Source: a virus (taxonomy: Duplodnaviria > Heunggongvirae > Uroviricota > Caudoviricetes). From it: a stretch of DNA of 37,164 nt. Positions 1 through 37,164 of the stretch are shown piece by piece. The notes under the pieces are model-generated. The model ran no database searches and was not told where the DNA came from. It saw only the letters and a program-made list of their open reading frames with translations. Position 1 is the stretch's first letter, and each line of letters opens with the position of its first letter. The translations under genes were made by a program, and so were the position numbers. The stretch is from IMG/VR virus record IMGVR_UViG_2541047856_000006. One strand, given 5' to 3'.

Positions 1-61
1 GGTATCCGTTCTGCTGAAGTGTCATGGCGTTGATTTTACGGTGACTCTTCGACAGTGAAAA

Positions 62-83
62 GAAAAAAGGCCGCAGAGCGGCC
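62..83 (-). terminator. Putative rho-independent terminator ending the leftward C-int-cargo operon
   Basis: Plus-strand aaaaaa followed by GGCCGC-agag-CGGCC (69..83); on the minus strand this is a GC stem followed by a T-run, just downstream of the ORF ending at 209. Confidence 0.55.
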
Positions 84-208
84 ATAAACACAAGTAAAAA
101 TCAATAAGTTAGATAATTATCAAAGACTTACAGACACACAAAAACACAGCAAACCACAACAAATAACAGGGATGTGGTCACTTTGTGGATCATATCGCCG
201 CCATAAAT

Positions 209-646
209 TTACTTAATAACAGTAACCACAGCCACAAGCACGGCCATCGCAGACAGGACAATACCTGTGAGTAACCAAGTCTGATTTGCAAATGATTTCT
301 GAAGTTCAGTACGATGCTCAGCCATCTCAACTTTCAGAGACTGGCGTAAATCAGCCATCTCAGACTTCAGGGATTGGCGCGATTCTGCCATCTCAAGCCT
401 CAACCCTTCGCGAATCTCCAGTACATCAGATTTGGTAGCAAAGGATTCGCTTCTTGTGGTGAGAGTAATCAGGTTGTTTTTGATTTCAGTCACATCACTT
501 TCCAGGCAACTGACCCGCCGTTCAAGGTCGTCATTCATGCCATCACCTCCATCATTACCACTTCCTGTTACTTGGTTGTTGGATACATTATAGGCATTCT
601 CTTTCTTTTTTCTGAACGGTAAAATAGAAGCACTGTCCGGCATCAT
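209..646 (-). CDS. Hypothetical membrane-anchored coiled-coil protein (cargo gene downstream of int)
   Basis: 145 aa ORF. It carries ~11-residue repeats (LRLEMAESRQS / LKSEMADLRQS / LKVEMAEHRTE) and a C-terminal hydrophobic segment (WLLTGIVLSAMAVLVAVVTVI). Its start overlaps the upstream ORF by 4 nt. Confidence 0.6.
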   Translation of the reverse strand: MMPDSASILPFRKKKENAYNVSNNQVTGSGNDGGDGMNDDLERRVSCLESDVTEIKNNLITLTTRSESFATKSDVLEIREGLRLEMAESRQSLKSEMADLRQSLKVEMAEHRTELQKSFANQTWLLTGIVLSAMAVLVAVVTVIK

Positions 647-1005
647 TTGTCATCGCCCTGCTTGCCTACCCAGTTCATAAAGGCCCGGGCCGAGTAACGA
701 TGAACAAACCCACATCTGTTACAGGTAAGTCGGAATTCATAGTTATGGATATTTTCCCGATCATGTCCCTCATATCCCGGATACCCAGTAAATGGACCGA
801 TGTAATCAAGCATAACAAAAGTGCCTAAATCACACTCCTCAGCAGTTTTCGGCTCAGGCCCCACCTCAACAATATTCGTCAAATACATGTACATATCCGT
901 ATCGCCACACGACAAACATTTTTCATTCGTAGACGACTCATTGAGAAAACGCGCAAAATTATCGAGCGTTGCCATTCTTTTAAGTTCATCTAAATGAAAC
1001 TTCAC
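643..1005 (-). CDS. Hypothetical Cys-pair (zinc-ribbon-like) protein, translationally coupled to int
   Basis: 120 aa ORF with CLSCGD and CNRCG motifs. It has a GTG start 2 nt after the int stop, with an AGGAGG Shine-Dalgarno inside the int 3' end. Confidence 0.55.
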   Translation of the reverse strand: MKFHLDELKRMATLDNFARFLNESSTNEKCLSCGDTDMYMYLTNIVEVGPEPKTAEECDLGTFVMLDYIGPFTGYPGYEGHDRENIHNYEFRLTCNRCGFVHRYSARAFMNWVGKQGDDK

Positions 1006-1007
1006 TC

Positions 1008-1985
1008 TTAAGCACCTCCTAGTGGATTAAACCTCACCGCATCCTGCAGGTAATCCGGCGCAAGATGGGCATAAATCATCGTTGTCTGAATCTTTGCGTG
1101 CCCCAGAATTTTCTGGAGCGTCAGAATATTGCCGCCGTTCATCATGAAATGACTGGCGAAGGTGTGGCGCAGCGCATGAACAGCCTGGCCGTCAGGAACA
1201 TCAGGTGCGACCGTTTTGATGACATCGCGAACCAATGAATAATCCAGCCTCGGAAACACCAGTTTCCCGCCCCGTTTTTTGATCTTTTCAAACAGGCTTT
1301 CAGAAATAGGAACGGTACGGTTTTTGCTGTTCTTCGTTTTTGAAAAAGTGATTCGACAATGAAGAACACGGCGCTGCTCCAGTGCCGCTACCTCGCCCCA
1401 TCGCGCCCCGGTCGACAGAAGGATTTCGACAGCCAGCCGCTCATCGGGATTTTCAGCCAGCGCATCCAGCAACTGAACACATTCAGACTTACTCAGGTAT
1501 CCCATTTCGCGCTCGTTAACCTTCATTCCTTTAAGGCCTTGAACGGGGTTATCGTTAAGAAAATGGCCGGATGAGATGAGTGCGGTAAACATCGCGCTTA
1601 ACGCCCCAATCTCTCGATTTATGGTGCTGGGCTGTATCCCCTGCTCTATCCTGGACACACGTAGCTCGGTGAGCATTGTTGTATTAAGTTTATGTACGCA
1701 CGGGTCATCCATTGCCTCACTCAAGCGCAGCAATTTAAGGCGCGTGTTATGCCCTGACTTCATTAGCTGGCCGTGGTATTTCCACCACAAGTCAATAAGC
1801 ACTGACAGAGGACGGCGATCAATAGAGTTTCCTTTCCACTCATTGTTATGCTGTTGCGCCAGCACCCACCGCTCATATAAAACTGCATCCGATTTCGTTT
1901 TAAATTTTTTGCGAATGCGTTTGCCTTTACGCCCCTCAGGGCGCATGTCAAGAAGATACCCTCCCGGAATTGATTTTATGCTCAT
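1008..1985 (-). CDS. int: P2-type tyrosine integrase
   Basis: C-terminal catalytic region HALRHTFASHFMMNGG...LGHAKIQTTMIYAHL. The N-terminus MSIKSIPGGYLLDMRPEGRKGKRIRKKF aligns with the remembered P2 Int start, so the start is placed at the ATG at 1985 rather than the upstream ORF extension to 2135. Confidence 0.93.
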   Translation of the reverse strand: MSIKSIPGGYLLDMRPEGRKGKRIRKKFKTKSDAVLYERWVLAQQHNNEWKGNSIDRRPLSVLIDLWWKYHGQLMKSGHNTRLKLLRLSEAMDDPCVHKLNTTMLTELRVSRIEQGIQPSTINREIGALSAMFTALISSGHFLNDNPVQGLKGMKVNEREMGYLSKSECVQLLDALAENPDERLAVEILLSTGARWGEVAALEQRRVLHCRITFSKTKNSKNRTVPISESLFEKIKKRGGKLVFPRLDYSLVRDVIKTVAPDVPDGQAVHALRHTFASHFMMNGGNILTLQKILGHAKIQTTMIYAHLAPDYLQDAVRFNPLGGA

Positions 1986-2034
1986 TCGTGAAACCCCAGC
2001 GTTACAAGACCACCATGCCCCCAGCGTTCCATGA

Positions 2035-2343
2035 TTAGCCGGGCTGTGTACCAGTCTTGCGGGATTTTTGAGAAGACGATGTGTTTTCTGGCCCATCAGG
2101 GGAGAGAGAGGGACTGATCTGCCCAGCAGCCTCATTCGTTTTTCCTGTCATAAGCCAATTCATGTACTTAAAAAAGCGAGGGTGATTAACAATCTTGATA
2201 AGCACTTCGCCCCCTATGTTTTCAATCCGCCCCGTTTCATAACGACGCAAAGTGCCGATAGGCACATCAATCAGGCCGCAAAATTCTTCGCGCGTTAAAT
2301 CCTCTGATTCACGAATCACTCTAATTTTTTCACCGATAAGCAT
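2035..2343 (-). CDS. C: Immunity repressor C (P2 C-like, helix-turn-helix)
   Basis: ~100 aa, directly upstream of int on the same strand and divergent from the early operon; the N-terminal helix-turn-helix-like segment and the tail ...SGQISPSL... resemble P2 C as remembered. Confidence 0.75.
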   Translation of the reverse strand: MLIGEKIRVIRESEDLTREEFCGLIDVPIGTLRRYETGRIENIGGEVLIKIVNHPRFFKYMNWLMTGKTNEAAGQISPSLSPDGPENTSSSQKSRKTGTQPG

Positions 2344-2400
2344 TGACAGTGTTCCTATAAGTACACTAAGCTTGCGCGCAAGGTGTACTTATAAGTACAC
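2343..2400. promoter_or_regulatory. Lysis-lysogeny switch operator/promoter region
   Basis: TTGACA at 2343..2348; direct repeat TATAAGTACAC at 2356..2366 and 2390..2400; perfect 18-bp palindrome GTGTACTTATAAGTACAC at 2383..2400. It lies between divergent C and the Cox-like gene. Confidence 0.6.
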
Positions 2401-4727: not shown

Positions 4728-7549
4728 GTGAGTTTGCATGGAGCTGGAATGAACCACGGCCAGCCATTGATCCGGCCAGATTTACGGAGCGCAGGCAGGA
4801 AACTGAAACCGACCTGCAACGCGCCATCCGTTACTACCTTGAGGCGGACAAAAGGGCACAGGAAGAACAGGAAGCGAAGGAAGAAGCCTTTTTCGCACAA
4901 TCCTCCATGGGTAAAAAACTCATGGCATCCCTTGAGGAAGCCGGACAGCGTGAAAAGCTGGCACAGAGCATCATCAGTAAGCGCCGGGCAACAGAACAAG
5001 ACCCGGTAGCCCGTGCCTTTGCCACACTAAAGGCACTACCTGTTTATCTGCGTGAACCACTGAGCCGCCACCTCTCTTTCCTGCGCAAAAAACAGGAAGC
5101 CGATCGCCAGAAAGGCAAAAAGAGCTGGCAGGCGGAACGCTATGCACGCGGAACCCTGCGCAAAATATTCGAACGTCTGGATCGCACTGACGGACGCTGG
5201 CTGACACCGGGTTATCGCTCCCTTGCCGGGCGCGAACGCCTGGACGATTTGCTTTACCTGCCGCAGCTCAACAAGCACCAGATACAGACGCTGGCCACCA
5301 TGACCGCGGCGATGTTCAGCAGCACCTTCGAAACACTCTGCGATGGCTTTGGTGCCAGAGATGGCGAGCTGACCATGGATGTAATGTTGAAGGCTTACCG
5401 GATGCTGGCTCGTATCGCATTACGCCTGCACATCATGCCGCCACATTACGAAGCCCTGAACAAGAGCGAACCGGATACGGAACTGCTGCCGGGCGCAATC
5501 CTTCGCCTGACCTGTGCGGACTGGTGGAAACGCAAACTGTGGCTGTTACGTTGTGAGTGGAGAGAAGAACAACTCCGCGCCGCCTGTCTGGTTTCCAGAA
5601 AAACATCACCCTATCTGAGCCAGGACGCGTTAAGCGAGTTTCGCGCACAGCGCGAGAAAACCCGCGACTTCCTGAAGAGCTTCGAACTGGAAAACGAAGA
5701 CGGCTTCACGATTGATCTCGAGACAGTGTATTACGCGGGAGTAAGTAACCCGGTTCACCGTAAGGCAGAAATGATGGCCACCATGAAGGGACTGGAACTT
5801 CTGGCCGAAGCCCGTGGCGACAAAGCGGTGTTTCTGACTGTCACCTGCCCGTCAAAATACCACGCCACAACAGAGAACGGTCATCCGAATCCCAAATGGA
5901 ACGGGGCCACCATGCGCGACTCCAGCGATTACCTGGTTAACACCTTTTTTGCGGCGGTCCGCAAAAAACTGAACCGCGACGGCCTGCGCTGGTATGGCAT
6001 CCGCACGGTGGAGCCTCACCATGACGGCACCGTGCACTGGCATATGATGGTCTTTGCTCATCCGGAAGAAATCGACAGCATCGTGGCCATCACCCGCGAT
6101 ATTGCCATTCAGGAAGACCGCCACGAGCTGGGCAATGATATTACTCCGCGCTTTAAGGTGGAGTACGTCGACGGCTCCAAAGGCACGCCAACCAGCTACA
6201 TCGCCACCTACATCGGAAAAAACCTGGACAGCCGCGCCGTGGATGGAATCGATCCGAAAACGGGCAAACCACGCGTTGACCACGAAACCGGAAAATCAAT
6301 GGCCGAGAGCGTGGAGCGCGCCATCGGCTGGGCGCGCCTTCATCGGGTCCGCCAGTTCCAGTTCTTTGGCATCCCCTCCCGTCAGGTGTGGCGTGAACTG
6401 CGCCGCCTTGCCAGCCAGATGGCACGCAACCCGGAAGGCCCGCAACGGCTGAAGGATGACGCAATGGATGCGGTACTCGCTGCCGCCGATGCCGGGTGTT
6501 TTGCCACCTACATTGAAAAACAGGGCGGCGTACTTGTTCCACGCAAAGACTACCTGATTCGCACTGCCTACGACCTCGCAGATGAGCTGAACGATTACGG
6601 CGAACAGAGCGTACAGATTTACGGGATCTGGTCACCACTCATCGGGGAATCCTCCCGTGTGTGCACGCATCCGGATAACTGGAAGCTGGTAAGACGTAAA
6701 CCGGAAGCGGAAGACAGCGCCCGCGAAAATGGTTTTGACCTTCAGGGCGGCCCAGCCGCCCCTTGGACTCGTGGCAATAACTGTCCCCGTGTACAGGAAA
6801 CGAACAACAACGGGACAGAACAGCCGGAAGAACGGCCAGCACCGTGGCCGCAGCTCCCTGACGGCGTTGAAGTGAATGAATGGATGCGCTCACTGAAACG
6901 GCACGAACGCCGGGCGCTGATGCGTTCGCTGCGTGACAAACAGGCAAAAAACAGCAGTGATGAAATGCAGAGCTGGACACAGAGCCGCAAACAGCAGCGG
7001 CCTTTGCCTGATAACCACGAATTACTCGCTAAAGAATGGCGGGAGTCTGCTGAATCTCTCGGCCTGCATATCGGTGAACAGCAGATGCAGCACCTGTTAC
7101 GGGGCGGCAGTCTGTACGTTGACGGCAGCATCATTGCACCGCAGGGATTTGAAATTGTACGCAAACCGGATACCCGACCGGACAGCCGGATCACGCAGCT
7201 CTGGCAGCGCCTGAGCCGTAACCACGGCGTAAGCAGCACGGAGATCCGCCATAACCCGGTCGTCAGCTACCTGGAACAGCTGGGGGCATCAGACCCCGAA
7301 GCCGCCGCACGCCTGGCATTCACACTTCAGCAGGACCAGAACACCATGAAAACACCCGTTACCGTGCTTTCTGACATGCTGCGCGCCATCCGCGACGCAG
7401 AGCACGCACAGAGAATCAGTGAAACCACTGAACGCGCCCGCCGCAAAGCAGACCTGCTGCGGGGTGGCCTGACCAGTGGAAACAAAAAACAGACAGAAAC
7501 GGGATTCACAAATCCCGTAAATGAGCAAAAAACGCGCCGCGATATATGA
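4724..7549 (+). CDS. A: Rolling-circle replication endonuclease (P2 gpA family)
   Basis: HUH-type motif HDGTVHWHMMVFA and paired tyrosines YIATYIGK. The ATG at 4724 overlaps the upstream stop. The C-terminal region is longer than the ~760 aa remembered for P2 A. Confidence 0.93.
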   Translation: MSEFAWSWNEPRPAIDPARFTERRQETETDLQRAIRYYLEADKRAQEEQEAKEEAFFAQSSMGKKLMASLEEAGQREKLAQSIISKRRATEQDPVARAFATLKALPVYLREPLSRHLSFLRKKQEADRQKGKKSWQAERYARGTLRKIFERLDRTDGRWLTPGYRSLAGRERLDDLLYLPQLNKHQIQTLATMTAAMFSSTFETLCDGFGARDGELTMDVMLKAYRMLARIALRLHIMPPHYEALNKSEPDTELLPGAILRLTCADWWKRKLWLLRCEWREEQLRAACLVSRKTSPYLSQDALSEFRAQREKTRDFLKSFELENEDGFTIDLETVYYAGVSNPVHRKAEMMATMKGLELLAEARGDKAVFLTVTCPSKYHATTENGHPNPKWNGATMRDSSDYLVNTFFAAVRKKLNRDGLRWYGIRTVEPHHDGTVHWHMMVFAHPEEIDSIVAITRDIAIQEDRHELGNDITPRFKVEYVDGSKGTPTSYIATYIGKNLDSRAVDGIDPKTGKPRVDHETGKSMAESVERAIGWARLHRVRQFQFFGIPSRQVWRELRRLASQMARNPEGPQRLKDDAMDAVLAAADAGCFATYIEKQGGVLVPRKDYLIRTAYDLADELNDYGEQSVQIYGIWSPLIGESSRVCTHPDNWKLVRRKPEAEDSARENGFDLQGGPAAPWTRGNNCPRVQETNNNGTEQPEERPAPWPQLPDGVEVNEWMRSLKRHERRALMRSLRDKQAKNSSDEMQSWTQSRKQQRPLPDNHELLAKEWRESAESLGLHIGEQQMQHLLRGGSLYVDGSIIAPQGFEIVRKPDTRPDSRITQLWQRLSRNHGVSSTEIRHNPVVSYLEQLGASDPEAAARLAFTLQQDQNTMKTPVTVLSDMLRAIRDAEHAQRISETTERARRKADLLRGGLTSGNKKQTETGFTNPVNEQKTRRDI
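7496..7521. promoter_or_regulatory. Palindromic element 1 (ACGGGATT-caca-AATCCCGT)
   Basis: 8-bp perfect inverted repeat at 7499..7518 with AAA flanks, inside the 3' end of A. A near-identical copy lies 73 bp downstream. Confidence 0.5.
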
Positions 7550-7625: not shown

Positions 7626-8585
7626 ATGAAAATTTGTATCGATGACGGCTCCACCAACATCAAGCTGGCATGGACTGAGAACGGCGAACGCCGCAACGCC
7701 ATCAGCCCGAACAGCTTCAAGTCGGAATGGTCTGCGCCGTTCGGTGGCACGCAGCCCGCGAACTACATGCTTGATGGCGTGCGCTATGGTTTTGATCCGG
7801 TCAGCGATCGCTTTGTCCAGACGACCGACACGCAATACCAGTACAGCGATGTGAATGTCATTGCCATTCATCACGCGCTGGTCAAATCAGGCATCACACC
7901 ACAGGAAGTGGATGTGGTTGTCACCCTGCCACTGAGCGAGTATTTCGACACAAACGCACAGCCGGACATGGCCAACATCAACCGCAAAAAAGCAAACGTC
8001 ATGCGCCCGGTGGCGTACCAGAACGGAAAAGCATTCACTATCCGTAACGTACGGGTTATGCCTGAATCCATTCCGGCTGGTTTTAAAGCACTGGCTGACA
8101 TGAGTCCGTTTGAATCCCTGCTGATTGTGGATTTAGGCGGAACCACGCTGGATGTGGCAAAGGTTCAGGGGCAACTGGCAGGTATCAGCCAGGTGTTTTG
8201 CGATCCACACGTAGGCGTTTCTCTGATGGCCAATGCCGTACTGTCGGTGATGGCCACTAACGGTATGCGCACCAGTCACCACATCGCCAATACCATTATC
8301 GAACATCGCCATGATGAAGCCTGGCTGCGCCAGCACATCCACAATGACGCGCATTACGCCAGCCTGATGGCGGTTATTCGTGAAAAGGAAGAAACACTGA
8401 AACAACGCGTGATCCGCGCGCTGGCGGGTTTTTCGGGTTACGGGCGGGTGATGGTTGTCGGTGGCGGGGCGGAGATTGTGGCACCCGCTATCCGCGAAGC
8501 CTGCGGAGTTAATGCGACTTTCATCGCGGACGGGGTGCCACAGTTTGCTCTGGTTAATGGGCTGTACGCAATGGACAAGGAGTAA
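7626..8585 (+). CDS. parM: Actin-like segregation ATPase ParM/StbA
   Basis: N-terminus MKICIDDGSTNIKLAW...ISPNSFKSEW...YSDVNVIAIHHALVKSGI closely matches the remembered plasmid R1 ParM; DLGGTT and VVGGGA phosphate-binding motifs present. Confidence 0.88.
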   Translation: MKICIDDGSTNIKLAWTENGERRNAISPNSFKSEWSAPFGGTQPANYMLDGVRYGFDPVSDRFVQTTDTQYQYSDVNVIAIHHALVKSGITPQEVDVVVTLPLSEYFDTNAQPDMANINRKKANVMRPVAYQNGKAFTIRNVRVMPESIPAGFKALADMSPFESLLIVDLGGTTLDVAKVQGQLAGISQVFCDPHVGVSLMANAVLSVMATNGMRTSHHIANTIIEHRHDEAWLRQHIHNDAHYASLMAVIREKEETLKQRVIRALAGFSGYGRVMVVGGGAEIVAPAIREACGVNATFIADGVPQFALVNGLYAMDKE

Positions 8586-8964: not shown

Positions 8965-9489
8965 ATGAGCGAAATCAACTATCAGGCATTACGTGAGGCA
9001 GCACAAAACTATCAATCGACGCTGGCGTGGTATGAGGCCATCGCGGATAACCCAAATGCTGAGCAGGATTGTAACGAAGCAGTGGCGGCGTTTAAGCGTC
9101 AAATCCGTCATCAGGAAATGGACATTATCGCCGAGCTGCTGGAAGAACTGGAAACCAAAGACAACAGGATCGCTGAACTGGAAAAAATCGCCACTGACCA
9201 TGCACTTAAATTCCAGAAAGCACAGGACGCATTAAAGCATACCGCTTTGCTGCATAGCCGGACGGCGCAACAAACAAATAATTTTGCAGTATCGCTTCCG
9301 GACATAAGCGAATATTTCATTAATGACGTATTTCAGCCCTTGCGATACGAGCGGGATGTTGAAAGAGCCATCATAAAGGCTGGCGGAAAAGCATTGTGGC
9401 AGGAGAAACACGAGGACAGAACGCATCAGTCCTGCGATGTAAATTGTGGATGGTTTAGCCCACTGACGACAGATAAAAATAACACCTGA
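8965..9489 (+). CDS. Hypothetical coiled-coil protein
   Basis: 174 aa; good spacing from an upstream AAGGAGA; central predicted coiled coil (ELLEELETKDNRIAELEKIATDHALKFQKAQDALKH). Confidence 0.55.
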   Translation: MSEINYQALREAAQNYQSTLAWYEAIADNPNAEQDCNEAVAAFKRQIRHQEMDIIAELLEELETKDNRIAELEKIATDHALKFQKAQDALKHTALLHSRTAQQTNNFAVSLPDISEYFINDVFQPLRYERDVERAIIKAGGKALWQEKHEDRTHQSCDVNCGWFSPLTTDKNNT

Positions 9490-21188: not shown

Positions 21189-23423
21189 ATGAGTACCACA
21201 ACACGAAAATTTAAAACCGTTATCACCGATACAGGTGCCAAAAAATTAGCTCAGGCAGCCGCTCCAGATGGTAAGCCTGTCCGCCTGACTCATATGGCCG
21301 TGGGCGACGGTGGCGGCACGTTGCCCACACCAGACAGTAAGCAGACCCGTCTGGTGCATGAGGTGTGGCGACACACTGTTAATCGCGTCATCCTGGACGC
21401 AACACATCAGAACCGCATTATTGCGGAGCTGGTTATTCCTCCTGAAACGGGCGGATTCTGGATCCGGGAAATTGGTGTATTTGATGAGCACGGCGATTTA
21501 ATCGCGGTGGGCAATACTGCCGAAAGTTACAAACCAACCGTTGCCGAAGGGTCCGGACGTGCACAAACATTTCGCACCATTCTGACCGTATCCAGCACGG
21601 CCACCGTGGCGCTTACCGTGGATAACACCATGGTGATGGCCACAGTGGATTACGTGGATGACAAACTGAAAGAGCATGAACAGTCACGACGTCACCCGGA
21701 CGCCTCGCTGACCGCAAAAGGCTTTGTTCAACTCAGTAGCGCCACTAACAGCGTGTCTGAAACGCAGGCTGCAACGCCGAAAGCGGTTAAGGCCGCGTAT
21801 GACCTTGCTAACGCAAAATATACCGCTCAGGACGCCACGACGGCACGAAAAGGCCTTGTCCAGCTCAGTAGCGCCACCAACAGCACGTCTGAAACGCAGG
21901 CTGCAACGCCGAAAGCAGTAAAGGCCGCGTATGACCTTGCTAACGCAAAATATACCGCTCAGGACGCCACGACGGCACAAAAAGGGATAGTCCAGCTCAG
22001 TAGTGCCACCAACAGCACGTCTGAAACACTGGCCGCGACATCGAAAGCGGTTAAGGCGGTAATGGATGAAACGAACAAGAAAGCGCCCTTAAACAGTCCT
22101 GCGTTGACCGGAACGCCAACAACGCCAACTGCGCGACAGGGAACGAATAATACCCAAATCGCAAGCACGGCTTTCGTTATGGCTGCGATTGCCGCCCTTG
22201 TAGATTCGTCACCTGACGCACTGAATACGCTGAACGAGTTAGCGGCGGCGCTGGGAAACGACCCGAATTTTGCGACCACCATGACTAACGCGCTTGCGGG
22301 TAAGCAACCGAAAGATGCCACCCTGACGGCGCTGGCCGGGCTTGCTACTGCGGCAGACAGGTTTCCGTATTTTACGGGGAATGATGTTGCCAGTCTGGCA
22401 ACCCTGACAGAAGTCGGGCGGGATATTCTTGCGAAATCGACCGTTGCCGCTGTTATCGAATACCTCGGTTTACAGGAAACGGTAAATCAGGCTTCTGGCG
22501 CATTACAGAAAAAACAGAACGGCGCAGATATTCCGGGAAAAGATACCTTCACCAAAAATATTGGGGCCTGTCGCGCATATAGCGCATGGCTGAATATTGG
22601 TGGCGATAGTCAGGTCTGGACAACTGCGCAATTTATTTCGTGGCTGGAGAGTCAGGGGGCATTTAACCATCCTTACTGGATGTGCAAAGGCTCATGGGCT
22701 TATGCAAATAATAAGGTCATTACAGATACAGGTTGCGGAAATATTTGTCTTGCAGGTGCTGTGGTGGAAGTTATTGGCACCCGCGGCGCAATGACCATAC
22801 GCGTTACCACGCCGAGCACGTCCAGCGGTGGCGGAATCACTAACGCTCAATTCACTTATATTAATCATGGTGATGCTTACGCTCCTGGCTGGCGACGAGA
22901 CTACAACACGAAAAACCAGCAGCCTGCATTTGCTTTAGGGCAAACAGGACGCAGGGTCGCAAATGATAAAGCTGTTGGCTGGAACTGGAATAGCGGCGTT
23001 TATGATGCAGATATCAGTGGCGCATCGACATTAATCCTCCACTTTAATATGAATGCGGGGAGTTGCCCTGCTGTACAGTTCCGCGTGAATTACAGAAATG
23101 GCGGTATCTTTTATCGTTCAGCGCGTGATGGTTATGGCTTTGAAGCTAACTGGTCAGAGTTTTACACCACAACACGCAAACCCTCTGCGGGAGATGTTGG
23201 TGCATATACGCAGGCAGAATGTAACTCAAGGTTTATTACAGGTATTCGCCTTGGCGGTCTGTCATCTGTTCAGACATGGAATGGTCCTGGCTGGTCTGAC
23301 AGGTCAGGTTATGTCGTTACTGGTTCAGTTAACGGAAACCGTGATGAATTAATTGATACAACTCAGGCAAGGCCAATTCAGTATTGCATTAATGGAACGT
23401 GGTATAACGCGGGGAGTATTTAA
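21189..23423 (+). CDS. H: Tail fibre protein (gpH-like), constant N-terminal part plus currently expressed variable C-terminal part
   Basis: 744 aa with three tandem ~43-aa repeats (VQLSSATNS.SET.AAT.KAVKA...); a recombination site lies inside the gene at 22453..22478. Confidence 0.9.
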   Translation: MSTTTRKFKTVITDTGAKKLAQAAAPDGKPVRLTHMAVGDGGGTLPTPDSKQTRLVHEVWRHTVNRVILDATHQNRIIAELVIPPETGGFWIREIGVFDEHGDLIAVGNTAESYKPTVAEGSGRAQTFRTILTVSSTATVALTVDNTMVMATVDYVDDKLKEHEQSRRHPDASLTAKGFVQLSSATNSVSETQAATPKAVKAAYDLANAKYTAQDATTARKGLVQLSSATNSTSETQAATPKAVKAAYDLANAKYTAQDATTAQKGIVQLSSATNSTSETLAATSKAVKAVMDETNKKAPLNSPALTGTPTTPTARQGTNNTQIASTAFVMAAIAALVDSSPDALNTLNELAAALGNDPNFATTMTNALAGKQPKDATLTALAGLATAADRFPYFTGNDVASLATLTEVGRDILAKSTVAAVIEYLGLQETVNQASGALQKKQNGADIPGKDTFTKNIGACRAYSAWLNIGGDSQVWTTAQFISWLESQGAFNHPYWMCKGSWAYANNKVITDTGCGNICLAGAVVEVIGTRGAMTIRVTTPSTSSGGGITNAQFTYINHGDAYAPGWRRDYNTKNQQPAFALGQTGRRVANDKAVGWNWNSGVYDADISGASTLILHFNMNAGSCPAVQFRVNYRNGGIFYRSARDGYGFEANWSEFYTTTRKPSAGDVGAYTQAECNSRFITGIRLGGLSSVQTWNGPGWSDRSGYVVTGSVNGNRDELIDTTQARPIQYCINGTWYNAGSI
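21717..22080 (+). repeat. Tandem ~129-bp repeats (about 2.8 copies) inside H
   Basis: Near-identical nucleotide blocks encode KG(F/L/I)VQLSSATNS(V/T)SETQAATPKAVKAAYDLANAKYTAQDATTA(R/Q); they also generate spurious antisense ORFs. Confidence 0.85.
22453..22478. other. Invertase crossover site (gix/hix-like), left
   Basis: TTATCGAATACCTCGGTTTACAGGAA inside H; inverted copy of the site at 25503..25528; matches the remembered Gin/Hin recombination-site consensus. Confidence 0.85.
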
Positions 23424-23987: not shown

Positions 23988-24515
23988 TTATTCAGGCTTT
24001 TGTGGCCATTCAGGATTTGCCGTATCCACACGGCTGACCAGAACACTGTAGCGTTCCCATGACTCCAATCGTGTGCGTTCCTCTTCCGTCGCCATATTCA
24101 GCCTGACAGCGCGTTCCAGTGGCTGAATAACGTTTTCTGCTTCGGAAAGTAACGCAGCCTTTTGTGATTCGGCCTGTTGTTGTTGCTCGTCTGCCGTATA
24201 AATCCGTTTAACCACAGCTCCGTCCTTAAACATCCACTTACCGGAATCATCAGCACGACGATTAGCTGTAATATCAGGAACCTCAACGACGCTATAACCT
24301 TCAGGGTTAAGCGTGGAGGCATCTTTGGTGATGGCGACAATAATATTATTTGCATCGTAAACAATCTTTATTGTGTCTGGCTGAAAGTTTTTCACTTCCT
24401 CATACCAGTTTTTTCCGTCTTCGGACCATAACCAGATAACATCAAAATTCTTTGTTAGCTGATATTGTTCTTTTGTTTTTGGATTTCCAGACTTAATATT
24501 TTTTAAATGCTGCAT
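23988..24515 (-). CDS. Alternative tail fibre assembly chaperone (G')
   Basis: 175 aa paralogue of G in inverted orientation, within the invertible segment. Confidence 0.8.
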
Positions 24516-24518
24516 AAA

Positions 24519-25511
24519 TTACACCTGTGCGACGTTATACCATGTGCCATTGATGTATTTTTGTATTGGTCTGAATACTGCCGGATCATCGCCATCAACT
24601 TCACCGACAATGCCAAGCCCCGTAATTGCATGACCTGATTTCTCATACATCACGCCTTTTTGCATAGTCTGAACAACACGTGTGCCAAGTCGGACATCTC
24701 TCACATAACGTGAGTCAAAATTACCATAATTGCCGGGAATAACTTGCGCACCGCAAAGCCAGTTCCCGTTATTATCCATGTACGCCTGACCATCGGTGCC
24801 ATTGGCTGTCCTTGAGTTATTAATCATGTAGATGCCAAATTGCTTGTTCCCCAGTCCACCTATCATGAACTTTCGGTCGGCGTGATTCTGGCGAAGTAAC
24901 GCCTGAGCGCTATCAGTGTTAACTATATTTTTCCCAAAGATAGCGTTGTTATCGCGCATCTGAATCCACATACCATTACTGCTGTTAATAGCAAAACGGT
25001 CTGAAAGTGTCTCCCCTGAAACATTAAGGCCACGCCCCATCGAAACAGCGCCAGTAGCGTTATTAATCCATAATGGCCTTAATCCGTTATAAGTCCCCAT
25101 GTTGTCACCGGAGTTTGTCAACATGAAGTATGTATTTGAACCATCATTACGAATAAAGAATCCGTAATTACCATAAGCAATACGTAGGCCGTTTGCTGAT
25201 TTTGATATGACTTCGCCATTTACAATGGCATTGACAAGAACATACAAAGCATCCCATTTAAGATTCATCAGGTCTTTTGTTGTGGTGCTTTGTTTGCTTC
25301 TCCATTTGAAATATTCATTGCCGTTGTCGCCTGTTTCAAACCACATGTATGAATCAGTGTCACCATCGGCATCATTTTTAAATCCAATCTTCGCCCAGTC
25401 AGTATTTCGAATCCAGGCAAGGATTGAGTCATTTTCAAAAGTAAGCCCACCGGACAAGGTATCGCCATTTTTTTGCACGGCGTTACCAGCTCTGTTTACC
25501 GTTTCCTGCAA
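24519..25511 (-). CDS. Alternative tail-fibre C-terminal variable segment (promoterless H' cassette)
   Basis: Begins inside the right crossover site with MQETVN..., the same residues (LQETVN) found at the crossover point within H. It would fuse to the constant part of H after inversion. Confidence 0.8.
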   Translation of the reverse strand: MQETVNRAGNAVQKNGDTLSGGLTFENDSILAWIRNTDWAKIGFKNDADGDTDSYMWFETGDNGNEYFKWRSKQSTTTKDLMNLKWDALYVLVNAIVNGEVISKSANGLRIAYGNYGFFIRNDGSNTYFMLTNSGDNMGTYNGLRPLWINNATGAVSMGRGLNVSGETLSDRFAINSSNGMWIQMRDNNAIFGKNIVNTDSAQALLRQNHADRKFMIGGLGNKQFGIYMINNSRTANGTDGQAYMDNNGNWLCGAQVIPGNYGNFDSRYVRDVRLGTRVVQTMQKGVMYEKSGHAITGLGIVGEVDGDDPAVFRPIQKYINGTWYNVAQV

Positions 25512-25528
25512 ACCGAGGTTTTAGATAA
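25503..25528. other. Invertase crossover site (gix/hix-like), right
   Basis: TTCCTGCAAACCGAGGTTTTAGATAA, the inverted counterpart of 22453..22478, immediately upstream of the invertase gene. Confidence 0.85.
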
Positions 25529-25582
25529 TGGCCGTTTCTGACCTGCATGGCATGATTTACGCTTTTGGACGGGAGATTCAGC

Positions 25583-26170
25583 GTGCTGATTGGCTATGTA
25601 AGGGTATCAACAAATGACCAGAATACAGACCTGCAACGAAACGTTCTTGTTTGTGCAGGATGTGAACAAATATTTGAAGATAAATTAAGCGGGACAAAGA
25701 CAGACCGACCGGGATTAAAACGCGCTTTAAAGCGCCTTCAAAAAGGTGACACGCTGGTTGTCTGGAAACTGGATCGCCTCGGGCGAAGCATGAAACATCT
25801 GATTTCTCTCGTCGGGGAACTACGGGAGCGAGGGATTAATTTTCGCAGTCTGACCGACAGCATAGATACATCTTCTCCAATGGGGCGTTTTTTCTTCCAC
25901 GTGATGGGTGCCCTGGCTGAAATGGAACGTGAATTAATTGTTGAACGTACACTGGCCGGACTGGCAGCAGCGCGCGCACGGGGGCGCACAGGCGGACGTC
26001 GCCCGAAGCTGACAAAAGAACAGCATGAGCAAATAGCAAGGCTGATTAAAAACGGTCACGACAGAAAACAACTGGCAATAATTTACGGCATTGGTACATC
26101 GACGATTTATCGTTACCACCCCGCAGGAGAATCAAGCGGAACAATAGAGAAGAGTCAGAAAACAAAATAA
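25583..26170 (+). CDS. Serine-recombinase DNA invertase (Hin/Gin/Cin family)
   Basis: MLIGYVRVSTNDQNTDLQRN...LVVWKLDRLGRS...GRFFFHVMGALAEMERELI... with a C-terminal helix-turn-helix. Start taken at the GTG at 25583 (ORF frame begins at 25565). Confidence 0.93.
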   Translation: MLIGYVRVSTNDQNTDLQRNVLVCAGCEQIFEDKLSGTKTDRPGLKRALKRLQKGDTLVVWKLDRLGRSMKHLISLVGELRERGINFRSLTDSIDTSSPMGRFFFHVMGALAEMERELIVERTLAGLAAARARGRTGGRRPKLTKEQHEQIARLIKNGHDRKQLAIIYGIGTSTIYRYHPAGESSGTIEKSQKTK

Positions 26171-33258: not shown

Positions 33259-36057
33259 CTAAATCTCAGCAATCTTTTTTTTACTGTGCTGTTCTATTAT
33301 CCACTCTGCTTCCGCTTGGTATTCATGAGCTAACTCTCGAAGAATTCGGGCAAATCGATGAAAGCCTAGAAGTTCCATTGCATCAGACTTAGTATGATAT
33401 TGTTGGGCCAACTCCAATTCCGGTTTACCTTCAGGGTCAACAATGTAGACACCACGCGAATTTATTACCGCATTCTTATAACCAGTACGCACTTTATCAA
33501 GTTCACGTCTATTCAAAAACTCGGCCAGTTCTGGAAGTATCCAATGCTCGTCATTTGCAGGGCTAAAAATTAATATGCTTCCAATTCTATGATAAGCAAA
33601 ATCTAAATGGCCTGACTTTTCGCATTCTGTTTGAACAAAATCAAACCAGTTATTAAACGCATTGGCATCAAACTTGCCTTCAGCATCAACACCCGGAATC
33701 TTTTTCCAATCATCAAGTAAATAGCGTGAGTTTTTGGCAATATTTATTTCACTTTCAGATAGTTCTTTACTTGCTTTTTGAAATTCTGATCGATACGCAT
33801 ATTGAATGACTTCACAAAAAAAACTGGGTTCACTTGCTAGTTTTTTCTCTAATACTTGAGGATGCAACGAATCATTGGCTCCCCTGTTAATTACAGGCAG
33901 GTATGCCCATTCAATCTTTACTAAGTCGTCATCTGAAACAGTGTTATCATTTTGAATATAATTCACAAGTTCATTAAATGAGTGAATATCAAACCGCTCA
34001 ATATTTTCTGTGGTTCTAATTGATTGCAATAGAGCAAGCACAACCTTGCTGCTATCAACTAAATTATCGATATGTAAAATTCGAGATAAACAATCTATTG
34101 CCATCAAGGGACGGTCTACTTTAATCAAGCAATCTACAGCAAAATAAATTTCTTCCGTTGAATCACAGCAGTATGCATTAACATGGGTATTTTTCCAATA
34201 CTCGAAAGGAAAATCATCAAATGAAGCGTTTAATGCATCCCACGTTTCTTTTTTAAACGGTAACAAAAGAAAAAAAGCAATCTTTTCTTGAGCACTCCAG
34301 TCATTAATAACTGCCAACACCCATGATTTTCCTTCTCTGTAGTTCTTAGCCTGTACATAACCAGAAGCAAGAGAATTTTCCTTTTTAATATCACTAACAA
34401 TAAGTTTTTTCAGTATATCTAAAGGGATTTCTAGATCTTCTGCGACCAGACTACTACCAACAAACTCAGGTCTTTCAATAGAAAGAGAGAATTCTAAGAC
34501 TCCGTCAATACCATTAACAGTATATATTTCGTATATTGATTGCCCTCGTTCTTTTGTCAACCTTTCTTCTTGGTCCCGCCAGTTTCCATTTTCATCAAAT
34601 AGGAAGTAACTATTTTGTGCAAAAAGTCGTTTGCTATAAAGCATAGGATTTTCGGGCTTCAAGACTGTAGAAACATCTTTGATTTTTTCATTCTGTTCTG
34701 GTTGTATTGCCCAATAAGCACCTGAGAATCTTTTGTTTTTGTTATAAACTTCTAAACATTTTTCCCACACCGCCAACTTCAATTCAGCACTATCTGTTTT
34801 TTTAGAAAAATCATACAATAATTTAATTGCATCATCGAATTTAAATGGCGCTAAACTACCAATATTTTCAACTAAATCAACAAGTCTTAATGATGATTTA
34901 CTTGCCAATTCAATTGTTAATTGAGTGTATCTTTCAATCTGAGTACGACACTCATCATCCGATGGCCTTTTATTAAAACCGTTAGGAATAAAGTTTCTAA
35001 AAGTTGGAATATGTGTGCCAGATGTTACTTGCGTGTTGTTGGGTAACAACTGAACTAAAACACGCCATGCTGTATCGGGCCACTCCCTTGCCAATGCTTT
35101 GAAAGCAGCAATACGTCTATCTATATCAGCTGTAGTATGAGGAAGCCATGGTAACAATATGTTGATTATCGAGTTAAGTGGCCTGTTAGCCCAATTGCCA
35201 CCAGGATCATGGCTATCCAGCTCCCCTAATATTACTAAAGAGCGAGATAAATAGTTAGGCGCCCAAGCTAATCCTTCAATAGCCCATAGCAGTCCTGTCA
35301 TATAATTCCGACCTGAAATTCCACCGATACCTTCCTGTGCAAAAAGTGAATCAAATGGCTTGTCTTGGTGAGATGCAGCATTTTCCACTTCGTCGATAAA
35401 ACAGTCAGGAGCACTTTCCGCAAGCATAACTTGAATATCTTGCGTACTAGCCCATAATTGCCAGCTAGAAGCCGAAAAAACCTCTTTAACCACACTTGAG
35501 GCGCAATATTGCCCTTTATATTTTGAGCAATTAGTAAGTAACTCTTGCTTTGTTGCAACTAATGCCAACCCTTCGGATAGTCCTTTCCTTATTAATCGGC
35601 TATGTGGTAAAACCTTCCCATAAATTACTGCTGCATAACGCTCTTCAGGTGCCAGTTCAAATTGTGGGTCGATTGTTTTAAAAACGGATACAACAGTCGT
35701 CCGAAACAAATCCAAATGATCATCGAATAATCTTGACGATACCGTTTGAAATGTTTGTATTCTATCTTTAAAACTCCAAGAACCTCTCTCATGAATCAAA
35801 GGACTATCTTGCATCCCTTCAATTATTCTTATTTTTCGAATCCAACTGTCATATGACTCGCCAATAAGGCTTGTAATTATATTAATATCACCATTATTTT
35901 TTTCATCCCAGCAACCGACTAAAACAGCAATCGCTAACTCAGTCGCATAATCAACATTATCAATATTGTATATAGTTAAGTTACCAGCAACATTATGGCC
36001 TGTTCCGGCATGATTTTGACTAACTGAACTGCAGCTATGAATGTTATCCATAGACAC
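33259..36057 (-). CDS. Large hypothetical protein (932 aa) in an AT-rich island; function unknown
   Basis: Long uninterrupted ORF, AT-rich and clearly different in composition from the flanking phage genes. No Walker A, helicase or recognisable nuclease motif was seen by eye. GTG/ATG start coupled to the stop of the upstream small gene. Confidence 0.65.
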   Translation of the reverse strand: MSMDNIHSCSSVSQNHAGTGHNVAGNLTIYNIDNVDYATELAIAVLVGCWDEKNNGDINIITSLIGESYDSWIRKIRIIEGMQDSPLIHERGSWSFKDRIQTFQTVSSRLFDDHLDLFRTTVVSVFKTIDPQFELAPEERYAAVIYGKVLPHSRLIRKGLSEGLALVATKQELLTNCSKYKGQYCASSVVKEVFSASSWQLWASTQDIQVMLAESAPDCFIDEVENAASHQDKPFDSLFAQEGIGGISGRNYMTGLLWAIEGLAWAPNYLSRSLVILGELDSHDPGGNWANRPLNSIINILLPWLPHTTADIDRRIAAFKALAREWPDTAWRVLVQLLPNNTQVTSGTHIPTFRNFIPNGFNKRPSDDECRTQIERYTQLTIELASKSSLRLVDLVENIGSLAPFKFDDAIKLLYDFSKKTDSAELKLAVWEKCLEVYNKNKRFSGAYWAIQPEQNEKIKDVSTVLKPENPMLYSKRLFAQNSYFLFDENGNWRDQEERLTKERGQSIYEIYTVNGIDGVLEFSLSIERPEFVGSSLVAEDLEIPLDILKKLIVSDIKKENSLASGYVQAKNYREGKSWVLAVINDWSAQEKIAFFLLLPFKKETWDALNASFDDFPFEYWKNTHVNAYCCDSTEEIYFAVDCLIKVDRPLMAIDCLSRILHIDNLVDSSKVVLALLQSIRTTENIERFDIHSFNELVNYIQNDNTVSDDDLVKIEWAYLPVINRGANDSLHPQVLEKKLASEPSFFCEVIQYAYRSEFQKASKELSESEINIAKNSRYLLDDWKKIPGVDAEGKFDANAFNNWFDFVQTECEKSGHLDFAYHRIGSILIFSPANDEHWILPELAEFLNRRELDKVRTGYKNAVINSRGVYIVDPEGKPELELAQQYHTKSDAMELLGFHRFARILRELAHEYQAEAEWIIEQHSKKKIAEI

Positions 36058-36377
36058 TACCTCGTAATTTTATTTCCACCAATATTATCACCAGTGCCAC
36101 TATGGTTTTGAATAATGACAGTTGTTGCATGAGGTTTTATAGACGAGAGTATTTTTTGAATTTCACTACTATCCAATAGTTTTCTTTCAATTGCTATTTC
36201 ACTCATTTCATCGTTCAAAGACAGTTTTTCAAGTTCTTTAGCTAAAGCAGGGGCCACAGCCTCATCAACAACCCAATTTTTTAACTTTGCTTTTATTGAA
36301 GTTGCAGTAATCGAAACATGATGTTTGAGCATGTCATAAACTATGCCAGAAAGTATCGTCGAAGATAAAAAATCCAT
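36057..36377 (-). CDS. Small hypothetical protein (106 aa), first gene of the island operon
   Basis: Same strand and composition as the 932-aa gene; its C-terminus (IIQNHSGTGDNIGGN) echoes the N-terminus of the large protein (SQNHAGTGHNVAGN). Confidence 0.6.
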   Translation of the reverse strand: MDFLSSTILSGIVYDMLKHHVSITATSIKAKLKNWVVDEAVAPALAKELEKLSLNDEMSEIAIERKLLDSSEIQKILSSIKPHATTVIIQNHSGTGDNIGGNKITR

Positions 36378-36893: not shown

Positions 36894-37157
36894 ATGGTCG
36901 GAGGGAATACCCGAAGGCCAGATGTGGAAAGGCCCCGGAAAACATTTCTGTTTAACCGAGGCCCTAACCGCATTACCTTGACAAGTGAAAGGTTAGCGCC
37001 TCTCCGGAAAAGGAGCAAGTGCTATGTCGCAAAAATCGCTTACGGCCATCACGTTCTGCGTGACGGCAATCCTCATCATCTGGATGCTGCACGGTTCGCT
37101 GTGCGAAATACGGATGAGCTTCTGGGGAGCGGAGTTTGCGGCGTTCTTACAGTGTAA
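36894..37157 (+). CDS. Possible mok-like overlapping reading frame of the hok locus
   Basis: 87-aa ORF that fully overlaps the start of the hok-like gene in another frame, as mok does in hok/sok loci. Call rests on position only. Confidence 0.3.
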   Translation: MVGGNTRRPDVERPRKTFLFNRGPNRITLTSERLAPLRKRSKCYVAKIAYGHHVLRDGNPHHLDAARFAVRNTDELLGSGVCGVLTV

Positions 37158-37164
37158 GCAGTAA
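37024..37164 (+). CDS. hok: Hok/Gef-family type I toxin (small membrane peptide)
   Basis: 46 aa MSQKSLTAITFCVTAILIIWMLHGSLCEIRMSFWGAEFAAFLQCKQ: N-terminal transmembrane helix, then the SLCE(I/L) and E.AAFL.CK motifs of Hok-family toxins; AAAGGAG upstream. It ends at the window edge. Confidence 0.7.
   Translation: MSQKSLTAITFCVTAILIIWMLHGSLCEIRMSFWGAEFAAFLQCKQ

Follow-up and report, generated by a model that had tools for sequence, protein, structure and literature searches.

A zinc-ribbon and coiled-coil gene pair in the exchangeable int–att slot of a P2-like Escherichia coli prophage

Here we describe the left end of a 37,164-nucleotide (nt) stretch of viral DNA, the IMG/VR record IMGVR_UViG_2541047856_000006 (hereafter the window), in which two small open reading frames (ORFs) lie between the integrase gene int and the phage attachment site. 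Both are read from the minus strand: ORF1 (643–1005) starts with GTG and encodes 120 amino acids (aa), ORF2 (209–646) encodes 145 aa, and the two products match the families phrog_4293 (E = 3e-30) and phrog_9415 (E = 4e-39), respectively, both of unknown function. The genes preceding them on the same strand are int itself (1008–1985), a P2-type tyrosine integrase gene (Pfam Int_N, 1.5e-28; Phage_integrase, 4e-20; also annotated by RefSeq in E. coli CT30), and the gene of a C-type helix-turn-helix repressor (2035–2343; Pfam HTH_3/HTH_31 and RefSeq), the first gene of the leftward lysogenic operon; a Cox/Apl-like gene lies at 2440–2718. The chromosome of CT30 is 100 % identical to window positions 1–2400, btuC starting just left of position 1, and RefSeq lists there in order two hypothetical proteins, a phage integrase, a helix-turn-helix repressor and P2-like early genes. 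Judged by its P2-type int, helix-turn-helix repressor, annotated replication endonuclease, D, ogr and P2-type integrase arm sites, the window is assigned to a P2-like prophage of E. coli whose integration site is the ihfA terminator, in the interval from ihfA to btuC. A megablast search of positions 1–2400 against isolated phages returned just one short match, in int.

The junctions between the genes are tight, and the 2-nt gap between int and ORF1 and the 4-nt overlap between ORF1 and ORF2 that an earlier note on this DNA had described are both present. The 3′ end of int reads GGA GGT GCT TAA, so that a perfect Shine–Dalgarno sequence, AGGAGGT at 1014–1020, lies within the last int codons, 8 nt 5′ of the ORF1 GTG at 1005, which itself follows the int stop codon after the 2-nt gap. 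The ORF1 stop codon TGA (643–645) and the ORF2 start codon ATG (beginning at 646) share the sequence ATGA. Both ORFs, which match protein families, are real genes and not chance reading frames. A promoter scan did not find a convincing promoter separating C, int and ORF1, and a terminator scan found no terminator between C and the attachment-site core. The sequence TTCAGA-18-TATAAT (587–616, minus strand), which lies in ORF2 codons 11–20 and agrees with the promoter consensus at 10 of 12 positions, is a consensus match only; promoter-like sites are no more frequent in the region than in shuffled sequence (3 observed, 3.8 expected) and are not evidence of function.

The attachment (att) core was mapped by direct comparison of the empty site in E. 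coli Nissle 1917, attL in the window and attR in CT30. It is a 21-base-pair (bp) sequence, AAAAAAGGCCGCAGAGCGGCC, at positions 63–83, and is the same in the empty attB and in attR. In Nissle 1917, btuC and ihfA are spaced by 100 bp (...gtgaaaagAAAAAAGGCCGCAGAGCGGCCtttttagtt...), and the window is identical to this empty site through position 83 and phage DNA thereafter; in most of 5426 complete E. coli genomes the match to the window likewise breaks off at position 83. At its far end, the CT30 prophage reads phage DNA, AAAAAAGGCCGCAGAGCGGCC, tttttagtt and then ihfA. In the retrieved loci L003 and L002 the core is at 1563–1583 and about 5467–5487, respectively. The earlier note had named a core between int and ORF1 as the finding that would turn the two ORFs into host genes; because the core lies at 63–83 instead, ORF1 and ORF2 are inside the prophage.

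On the minus strand (83–63) the att core forms the hairpin GGCCGCTCTGCGGCC (GGCCGC-TCT-GCGGCC) followed by T6, an intrinsic terminator that was recovered by the terminator scan and is formed in both the minimum-energy and the centroid RNA folds. In the empty site the core is the terminator of ihfA, and because the A6/T6 run is part of the core, both ihfA at attR and the phage leftward operon at attL keep a full terminator. With its att core serving both ihfA and the phage operon as terminator, this integration site leaves the transcription units of host and phage intact. As the only strong minus-strand terminator downstream of the pair, it lies 125 nt past the ORF2 stop codon and beyond the Int arm sites, so the statement in the earlier note that the two genes end at a terminator holds as far as the hairpin goes, the hairpin being not private to them but that of the att core and ihfA. 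The arm sites, TGTGGTCA (173–180) and TGTGGATC (184–191), are plus-strand repeats with 11 bp spacing in the phage arm of attL that match the P2-type Int arm-site consensus tgTGGaCa (PMC3448106); the attR-side arm of CT30 carries TGTGGACA.

Between the arm sites and the end of int, prophages with alternative cargo diverge completely from the window. Same-site prophages are 96–98 % identical to the window over 1–193/198 (97–98 % in prophages with other cassettes) and again from 1015/1024 onwards, with no DNA homology in between (blastn). These breakpoints delimit an exchangeable cassette of 0.8 kb at 194–1014 (minus strand), which reaches from just past the arm sites to the last int codons. About 293 of the 5426 complete E. 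coli genomes carry the int allele at 95 % identity or more. The window pair occupies the slot in 82–86 genomes, a second pair, consisting of a 166-aa zinc-ribbon protein and a protein that RefSeq names ‘DUF1640 domain-containing’, in 39, and an unrelated 131-aa gene in 158 (for example E. coli EC556; L006, 3690–4085). The pair is cargo, as 194–1014 is swapped for non-homologous DNA in prophages that are otherwise 96–98 % identical. With ORF1 about 20 % identical and carrying the same cysteines, and ORF2 38 % identical, the second pair is a diverged version of the window pair. In E. coli O145 RM12367 (L005, 4317–4730) the zinc-ribbon gene of this second pair is frameshifted to 137 aa and lacks the second CxxC, while the coiled-coil gene is intact. 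The 131-aa protein is the commonest int–att occupant in E. coli and has no Pfam or PADLOC match.

That the int–att interval serves P2-like phages as an accessory and defence position is already published, its recognition as a minor defence hotspot of P2-like prophages being recent (PMC13586616); the cI–int interval of K139-like phages holds known defence systems as well (PMC9122126). The slot in the window resembles the P2-like hotspots (old/tin between A and Q, Z/fun in the tail region, and int–att) in being a short, high-turnover locus between conserved phage features. It is bounded by the int stop codon and the attP arm sites, lies inside an att-delimited element and has several unrelated occupants. 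Unlike the contents described for the P2-like and K139-like hotspots, the window occupant is not among the recognised defence systems; moreover, two of the three E. coli alleles are versions of one pair, so that the turnover here is partly allelic diversification and not replacement.

ORF1 bears out the description of the first protein as zinc-ribbon-like with cysteine pairs. A stretch of about 60 residues separates its two knuckles, C30-x2-C33 (907–918) and C95-x2-C98 (712–723), and C30, C33, C95, C98 and W112 are invariant across 64 aligned, diverse homologues. The N-terminal helices carry the family motif T13, F17, F20, L21, and the family consensus reads (V/I)TPExFxxFLxEKG...CxSCG...VP...YV...Y..C.NCG...Y.A..V..W. 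A word-based search found few relatives, and a full scan with the HMMER family profile gave 153 representatives at 50 % identity, all of 49–180 aa. Pfam searches of family members returned sub-threshold zinc-ribbon matches only, the family profile found nothing below E = 0.3 among PDB sequences, and tblastn against phages gave only four distant Klebsiella matches, one of which supplied the non-P2 setting described below. The AlphaFold2 model has a modest mean predicted local distance difference test (pLDDT) score of 64.5, with residues 39–60 disordered. Compared with generic four-cysteine zinc ribbons such as the NrdR N-terminal ribbon and TFIIS domain III, ORF1 shares the two CxxC knuckles with four invariant cysteines, and its weak likeness in fold and profile is to zinc ribbons alone. 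No recognisable DNA-binding domain was found in ORF1. We propose that ORF1 is a small cytoplasmic protein with a predicted four-cysteine zinc ribbon, and classify it by its sequence no further than as belonging to an unnamed zinc-ribbon family.

ORF2, as described before, is a C-terminally anchored protein with 11-residue repeats. AlphaFold2 predicts a disordered N-terminal segment (residues 1–32), followed by the Gly/Asp-rich linker GNDGGDG and a single long helix from Met37 to residue 144, in which the coiled coil starts at Met37. The helix contains the motif F-A-T-K-S-D (residues 69–74; 425–442) and the three repeats EMAESRQSLKS, EMADLRQSLKV and EMAEHRTELQK (residues 85–117; 296–394), and ends in a hydrophobic membrane anchor (residues 123–144; about 215–280). 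With the last 22 residues hydrophobic and only Lys145 after them, the protein would be tail-anchored with its bulk in the cytoplasm; the single C-terminal transmembrane helix is kept in all ORF2 relatives aligned. The 11-residue repeats correspond to 33-nt direct repeats at 318–383, and their copy number ranges from 1 to 4 among homologues otherwise more than 90 % identical, a variation that implies frequent slippage or recombination in the 33-nt repeats as well as tolerance of varied stalk length. Over codons 37–145, substitutions fall on the three codon positions in the ratio 3:2:12, from which we infer purifying selection on this part of the gene. A tblastn search of ORF2 against phages returned nothing.

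The motif at residues 69–74 fits the β-layer signature [aliphatic]-A-T-K-[polar]-[D/E] that Hartmann et al. described in the DUF1640 and DUF3782 families (PMC4786415), except that its first residue is aromatic and not aliphatic; K72 and D74 are invariant among the closer ORF2 relatives, though not across the most diverged lineages. Against Pfam PF07798 (CCDC90-like/DUF1640), ORF2 itself scores 10.8 bits (E = 0.44), under the gathering threshold of 33.5 bits, and 5 of 13 ORF2 relatives match this model (best 6.7e-6), while 3 of the 13 match XhlA (PF10779; best 2e-6). The best PDB matches of the family profile are alpha/beta coiled-coil constructs (7o92, 9e-5; 5apz, 0.004; 6h9l, 0.06). The 7o92 and 5apz constructs are trimeric, and the ORF2 coiled coil, modelled here as a monomer, is probably trimeric as well. 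By sequence ORF2 can be placed as a distant likeness of DUF1640 proteins (PF07798; MCUR1, CCDC90B and prokaryotic relatives), with which it shares a stalk ending in one C-terminal transmembrane helix and the β-layer signature; RefSeq names the diverged ORF2 allele a DUF1640 protein. It differs from them in having no folded head domain, in place of which stand the disordered N-terminus and the Gly/Asp linker, in its variable number of 11-residue repeats, and in being always paired with a zinc-ribbon gene. Like XhlA of the Bacillus PBSX lysis cassette, it is small and phage-encoded and combines a coiled coil at the N-terminus with a membrane anchor at the C-terminus, but the window ORF2 does not match the XhlA model, and the pair lies in a lysogeny operon with no adjacent holin or endolysin.

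When hidden Markov models of both families were scanned over all retrieved loci, an ORF2 relative stood directly downstream on the same strand in 64 of the 64 loci with an ORF1 relative. These 64 loci comprise 26 distinct ORF1 sequences in about 13 lineages. The junctions of intact genes range from −32 to +11 nt, leaving out one locus in which ORF1 is frameshifted and those overlaps that arise only because the longest ORF was called. Reciprocally, the gene upstream of two distant ORF2 relatives was an ORF1 relative in both cases, and the pairing persists at 20 % (ORF1) and 38 % (ORF2) identity. The two families form an obligate pair. A scan of viral sequences with P0119 gave only spurious matches of 16–22 residues, and tblastn of ORF1 against 72,556 plasmids found no copy.

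Most often the pair follows int in P2-like prophages, which were seen at no fewer than four different host sites. In 186-like elements it stands between int and an S24-type repressor, and a Citrobacter prophage likewise has it between repressor and int. In the non-P2 Klebsiella phage ST101-KPC2phi6.1 and some 20 related IMG/VR contigs it lies close to tail genes. In one genome the pair is interrupted by an insertion sequence element, and one copy adjoins a Gp49/HTH_37 toxin–antitoxin pair. In the Citrobacter prophage (L076, 2002–2631) a 209-aa protein with a Flk_N domain precedes the pair in the repressor–int operon; having its own C-terminal hydrophobic anchor, it is a second tail-anchored protein in the module. 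That other phages carry the pair between repressor and int speaks for selection to express it together with the lysogeny operon, and its recurrent position downstream of a repressor, on either side of int, supports selection for lysogen expression. The pair also outlives its phage: an intact copy stands next to ihfA beside an int fragment of 42 % identity, a pseudogene, while the rest of the prophage is gone. At this remnant locus (L024/L025, 3216–4228), which belongs to an enterobacterial metagenome lineage with no btuC–ihfA prophage, the pair directly follows the degraded int and faces ihfA, and as the protein occurs in 37 blocks of the contig collection, the remnant is seemingly widespread.

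Taken with its surroundings, the cassette at 194–1014 is in our tentative view, held with a little less than even confidence, a mobile two-gene accessory cassette whose pair acts as a lysogen-expressed module of inter-phage competition. In P2, C and int are co-transcribed from the repressor promoter. By this precedent the pair would be transcribed in a lysogen as the distal end of the C–int operon, as the earlier note had suggested, and the transcript would end at the att-core hairpin, shielding btuC from read-through. ORF1 would be translated from the Shine–Dalgarno sequence embedded in the 3′ end of int, and ORF2 by termination–reinitiation at the ATGA overlap, possibly also from Met37. The ORF2 product is predicted to sit in the inner membrane as a tail-anchored, probably trimeric, DUF1640-like coiled coil with a β-layer, its bulk facing the cytoplasm. 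There it could act as effector or scaffold, with the zinc-ribbon protein ORF1 as its partner or sensor, and from the cytoplasmic face of the membrane the pair would bring about exclusion or abortive infection. The allelic diversification of the pair and its survival after prophage decay would fit a host-beneficial trait. The predicted operon logic is reminiscent of lambda rexA–rexB, two exclusion genes co-transcribed with cI in lysogens that encode one soluble and one membrane product; here, too, a soluble and a membrane product would ride on the repressor transcript. No relationship in sequence or fold was detected; RexB is polytopic, whereas ORF2 appears tail-anchored with a single transmembrane helix. 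A more specific version of the competition reading, in which the pair is an unrecognised two-component exclusion or abortive-infection system of Enterobacterales temperate phages expressed from the lysogeny operon, with the 20–38 % allelic identity between cassettes of otherwise identical prophages reflecting an arms race against the phages that it senses and the two ORF2 starts giving effector and regulator isoforms, seems to us rather unlikely as a whole.

Several observations weigh against a role in competition. The functional claim draws on genomic context, and guilt by location is a weak argument, the more so as just 3 % of the recognised defence systems of P2-like phages lie in the int–att slot (PMC13586616) and in about half of the prophages that have this int allele the slot is taken by a single unrelated gene. 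The window proteins and seven diverged relatives matched no PADLOC 2.0 defence model; the hits obtained were weak and driven by coiled-coil composition (Cas12a, 0.025; LmuB, 0.009; and, for one relative, ZorA, 2e-5). Any defence role would therefore be that of a new system and not of a known one. With a periplasmic tail of only 1–6 residues, ORF2 is unlikely to block DNA entry in the classical manner from the periplasm. Furthermore, substitutions in ORF1 are spread over the codon positions as 11:6:13, and this low third-position bias could reflect relaxed or diversifying selection. The homology and structure searches that the earlier note had proposed brought out zinc-ribbon traits in ORF1 and coiled-coil, DUF1640-like traits in ORF2, but tied neither of them to a defence, toxin or structural family already known; for neither window protein did Pfam, NCBIfam or PADLOC yield a significant family, and in the literature no characterisation was found under the protein accessions, the PHROG identifiers or DUF1640 in phage context.

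Two other functions have to be set against competition between phages. The pair might be an addiction module resembling a toxin–antitoxin system that stabilises the prophage or its remnant, with ORF2 as a membrane-damaging toxin and ORF1 as its zinc-ribbon antidote, kept at a fixed ratio because their translation is coupled. Such a module would be in keeping with the small size and tight overlap of the two genes and the leading position of the soluble product, with the intact pair retained beside a decayed int after loss of the prophage, with the resemblance of ORF2 relatives to XhlA, a membrane protein of a phage lysis cassette, and with the copy adjoining the Gp49/HTH_37 pair. The lack of any copy on the plasmids searched, where addiction modules usually abound, speaks against it, together with searches of Pfam, NCBIfam and PADLOC that turned up no known toxin or antitoxin family, the hok/gef locus that the prophage already has, and the missing DNA-binding domain through which ORF1 could autoregulate. 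We consider this explanation quite unlikely, though addiction and abortive infection are roles compatible with each other. Clearly improbable in our estimate is that the pair serves the life cycle of the phage itself, be it integration and excision, the lysis–lysogeny decision or the timing of membrane lysis, and is not directed at competitors. Its almost constant place in the lysogeny module beside int or the repressor, the ORF1 ribosome-binding site that ties ORF1 synthesis to int expression, and again the XhlA-like similarity would agree with this. Yet the pair is dispensable, since the 131-aa gene takes its place in 158 of the roughly 293 prophages that share int, att and C; it stands away from any integrase in a different phage type, and it survives without a functional int. 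In P2-type phages Cox is the directionality factor, and a Cox/Apl-like gene is already present in the window. An integration accessory in particular was rejected, most prophages with the same int and att holding an unrelated gene in the slot. That the ORFs are host genes or chance frames outside the prophage has a vanishingly small probability: no support for it was found, and it is refuted by the mapped att core and by the empty site with its mere 100 bp between btuC and ihfA. Both ORFs are, moreover, absent from genomes without the prophage and have conserved homologues in prophages and IMG/VR viral contigs.

A further alternative concerns the translational coupling of ORF2 and not the function of the pair. 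Here the real product would be 109 aa long and start at Met37 (ATG at 536–538, minus strand) from its own Shine–Dalgarno sequence GGAGGT (545–550), perhaps with its own promoter at 616–587, and the 36 codons upstream would be an untranslated leader. GGAGGT precedes Met37 by 6 nt, whereas the ATGA start lacks a good Shine–Dalgarno sequence; Met37 is nearly invariant, residues 1–32 are predicted to be disordered, and the promoter-like match with its 10 of 12 positions lies upstream. The annotations point the same way, as the 109-aa form is the commonest one (P0021, at least 1000 contigs) and RefSeq annotates the diverged homologue of RM12367 from the equivalent Met. However, in every lineage the reading frame extends uninterrupted back to where ORF1 stops, despite unrelated N-terminal sequences, and an in-frame 3-nt indel occurs in the N-terminal segment among close relatives. 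In one lineage, L016, the residue corresponding to Met37 is not a Met, and the Gly/Asp-rich run before Met37 reaches up to 15 residues, far more than a Shine–Dalgarno sequence needs. On these grounds (open frame, lineage without Met, 15-residue run) we rejected the idea that the ‘GGDG-M’ motif is a mere Shine–Dalgarno sequence for Met37. Both products could also coexist as dual-start isoforms. We conclude that the 145-aa long form is real, possibly with a second, internally initiated form alongside it, and regard an uncoupled ORF2 as unlikely.

The commonest int–att occupants of E. coli prophages are still annotated as ‘hypothetical’, and one of them is now defined as an obligate, widespread and uncharacterised gene pair. 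It is recognisable by its four invariant cysteines and a tail-anchored β-layer coiled coil, by sharp boundaries, by polymorphism within E. coli and by persistence after prophage decay. With a possible role in competition between phages, it presents a compact candidate for a new lysogen-expressed exclusion module; if this is true, it would provide a phage-borne function for bacterial DUF1640-like membrane proteins.

At its right end the window holds ogr and then a toxin gene of the hok/gef family (37024–37164), at whose stop codon it ends. The attR site lies outside the window, about 270 bp past hok/gef in CT30, and an Rfam scan of the window gave no matches, including no Sok-like RNA. Besides the int–att cassette, a second cargo slot is found between gene D and ogr (33259–36377, minus strand). 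It encodes a 106-aa protein that consists entirely of a Het-E N-terminal domain (PF20701, E = 6e-39) and a 932-aa protein that is unmatched in Pfam and PADLOC, the two genes overlapping by 1 nt; together they look like an unrecognised defence-type system. CT30 carries a SIR2 protein and an ATP-binding protein in this slot instead. The old/tin hotspot between the replication and portal genes (7626–8585 and 8965–9489, plus strand) contains a ParM-type actin-like segregation ATPase (StbA_N, 7e-82) and an Ead/Ea22-like protein, a content suggesting that the phage could also persist as a plasmid; Rousset et al. reportedly noted possible plasmid maintenance for some P2-like phages as well. In the region 23988–26170, a resolvase-type DNA invertase (25565–26170, plus strand) adjoins an opposite-strand tail-fibre C-terminal segment with its assembly gene (23988–25511), an arrangement that we read as a Mu/P1-like invertible host-range switch. 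Finally, the long tail-fibre gene (21189–23423) contains a 132-nt unit repeated three times in tandem at 21698–22093, the second and third copies being 89 % and 66 % identical to the first.

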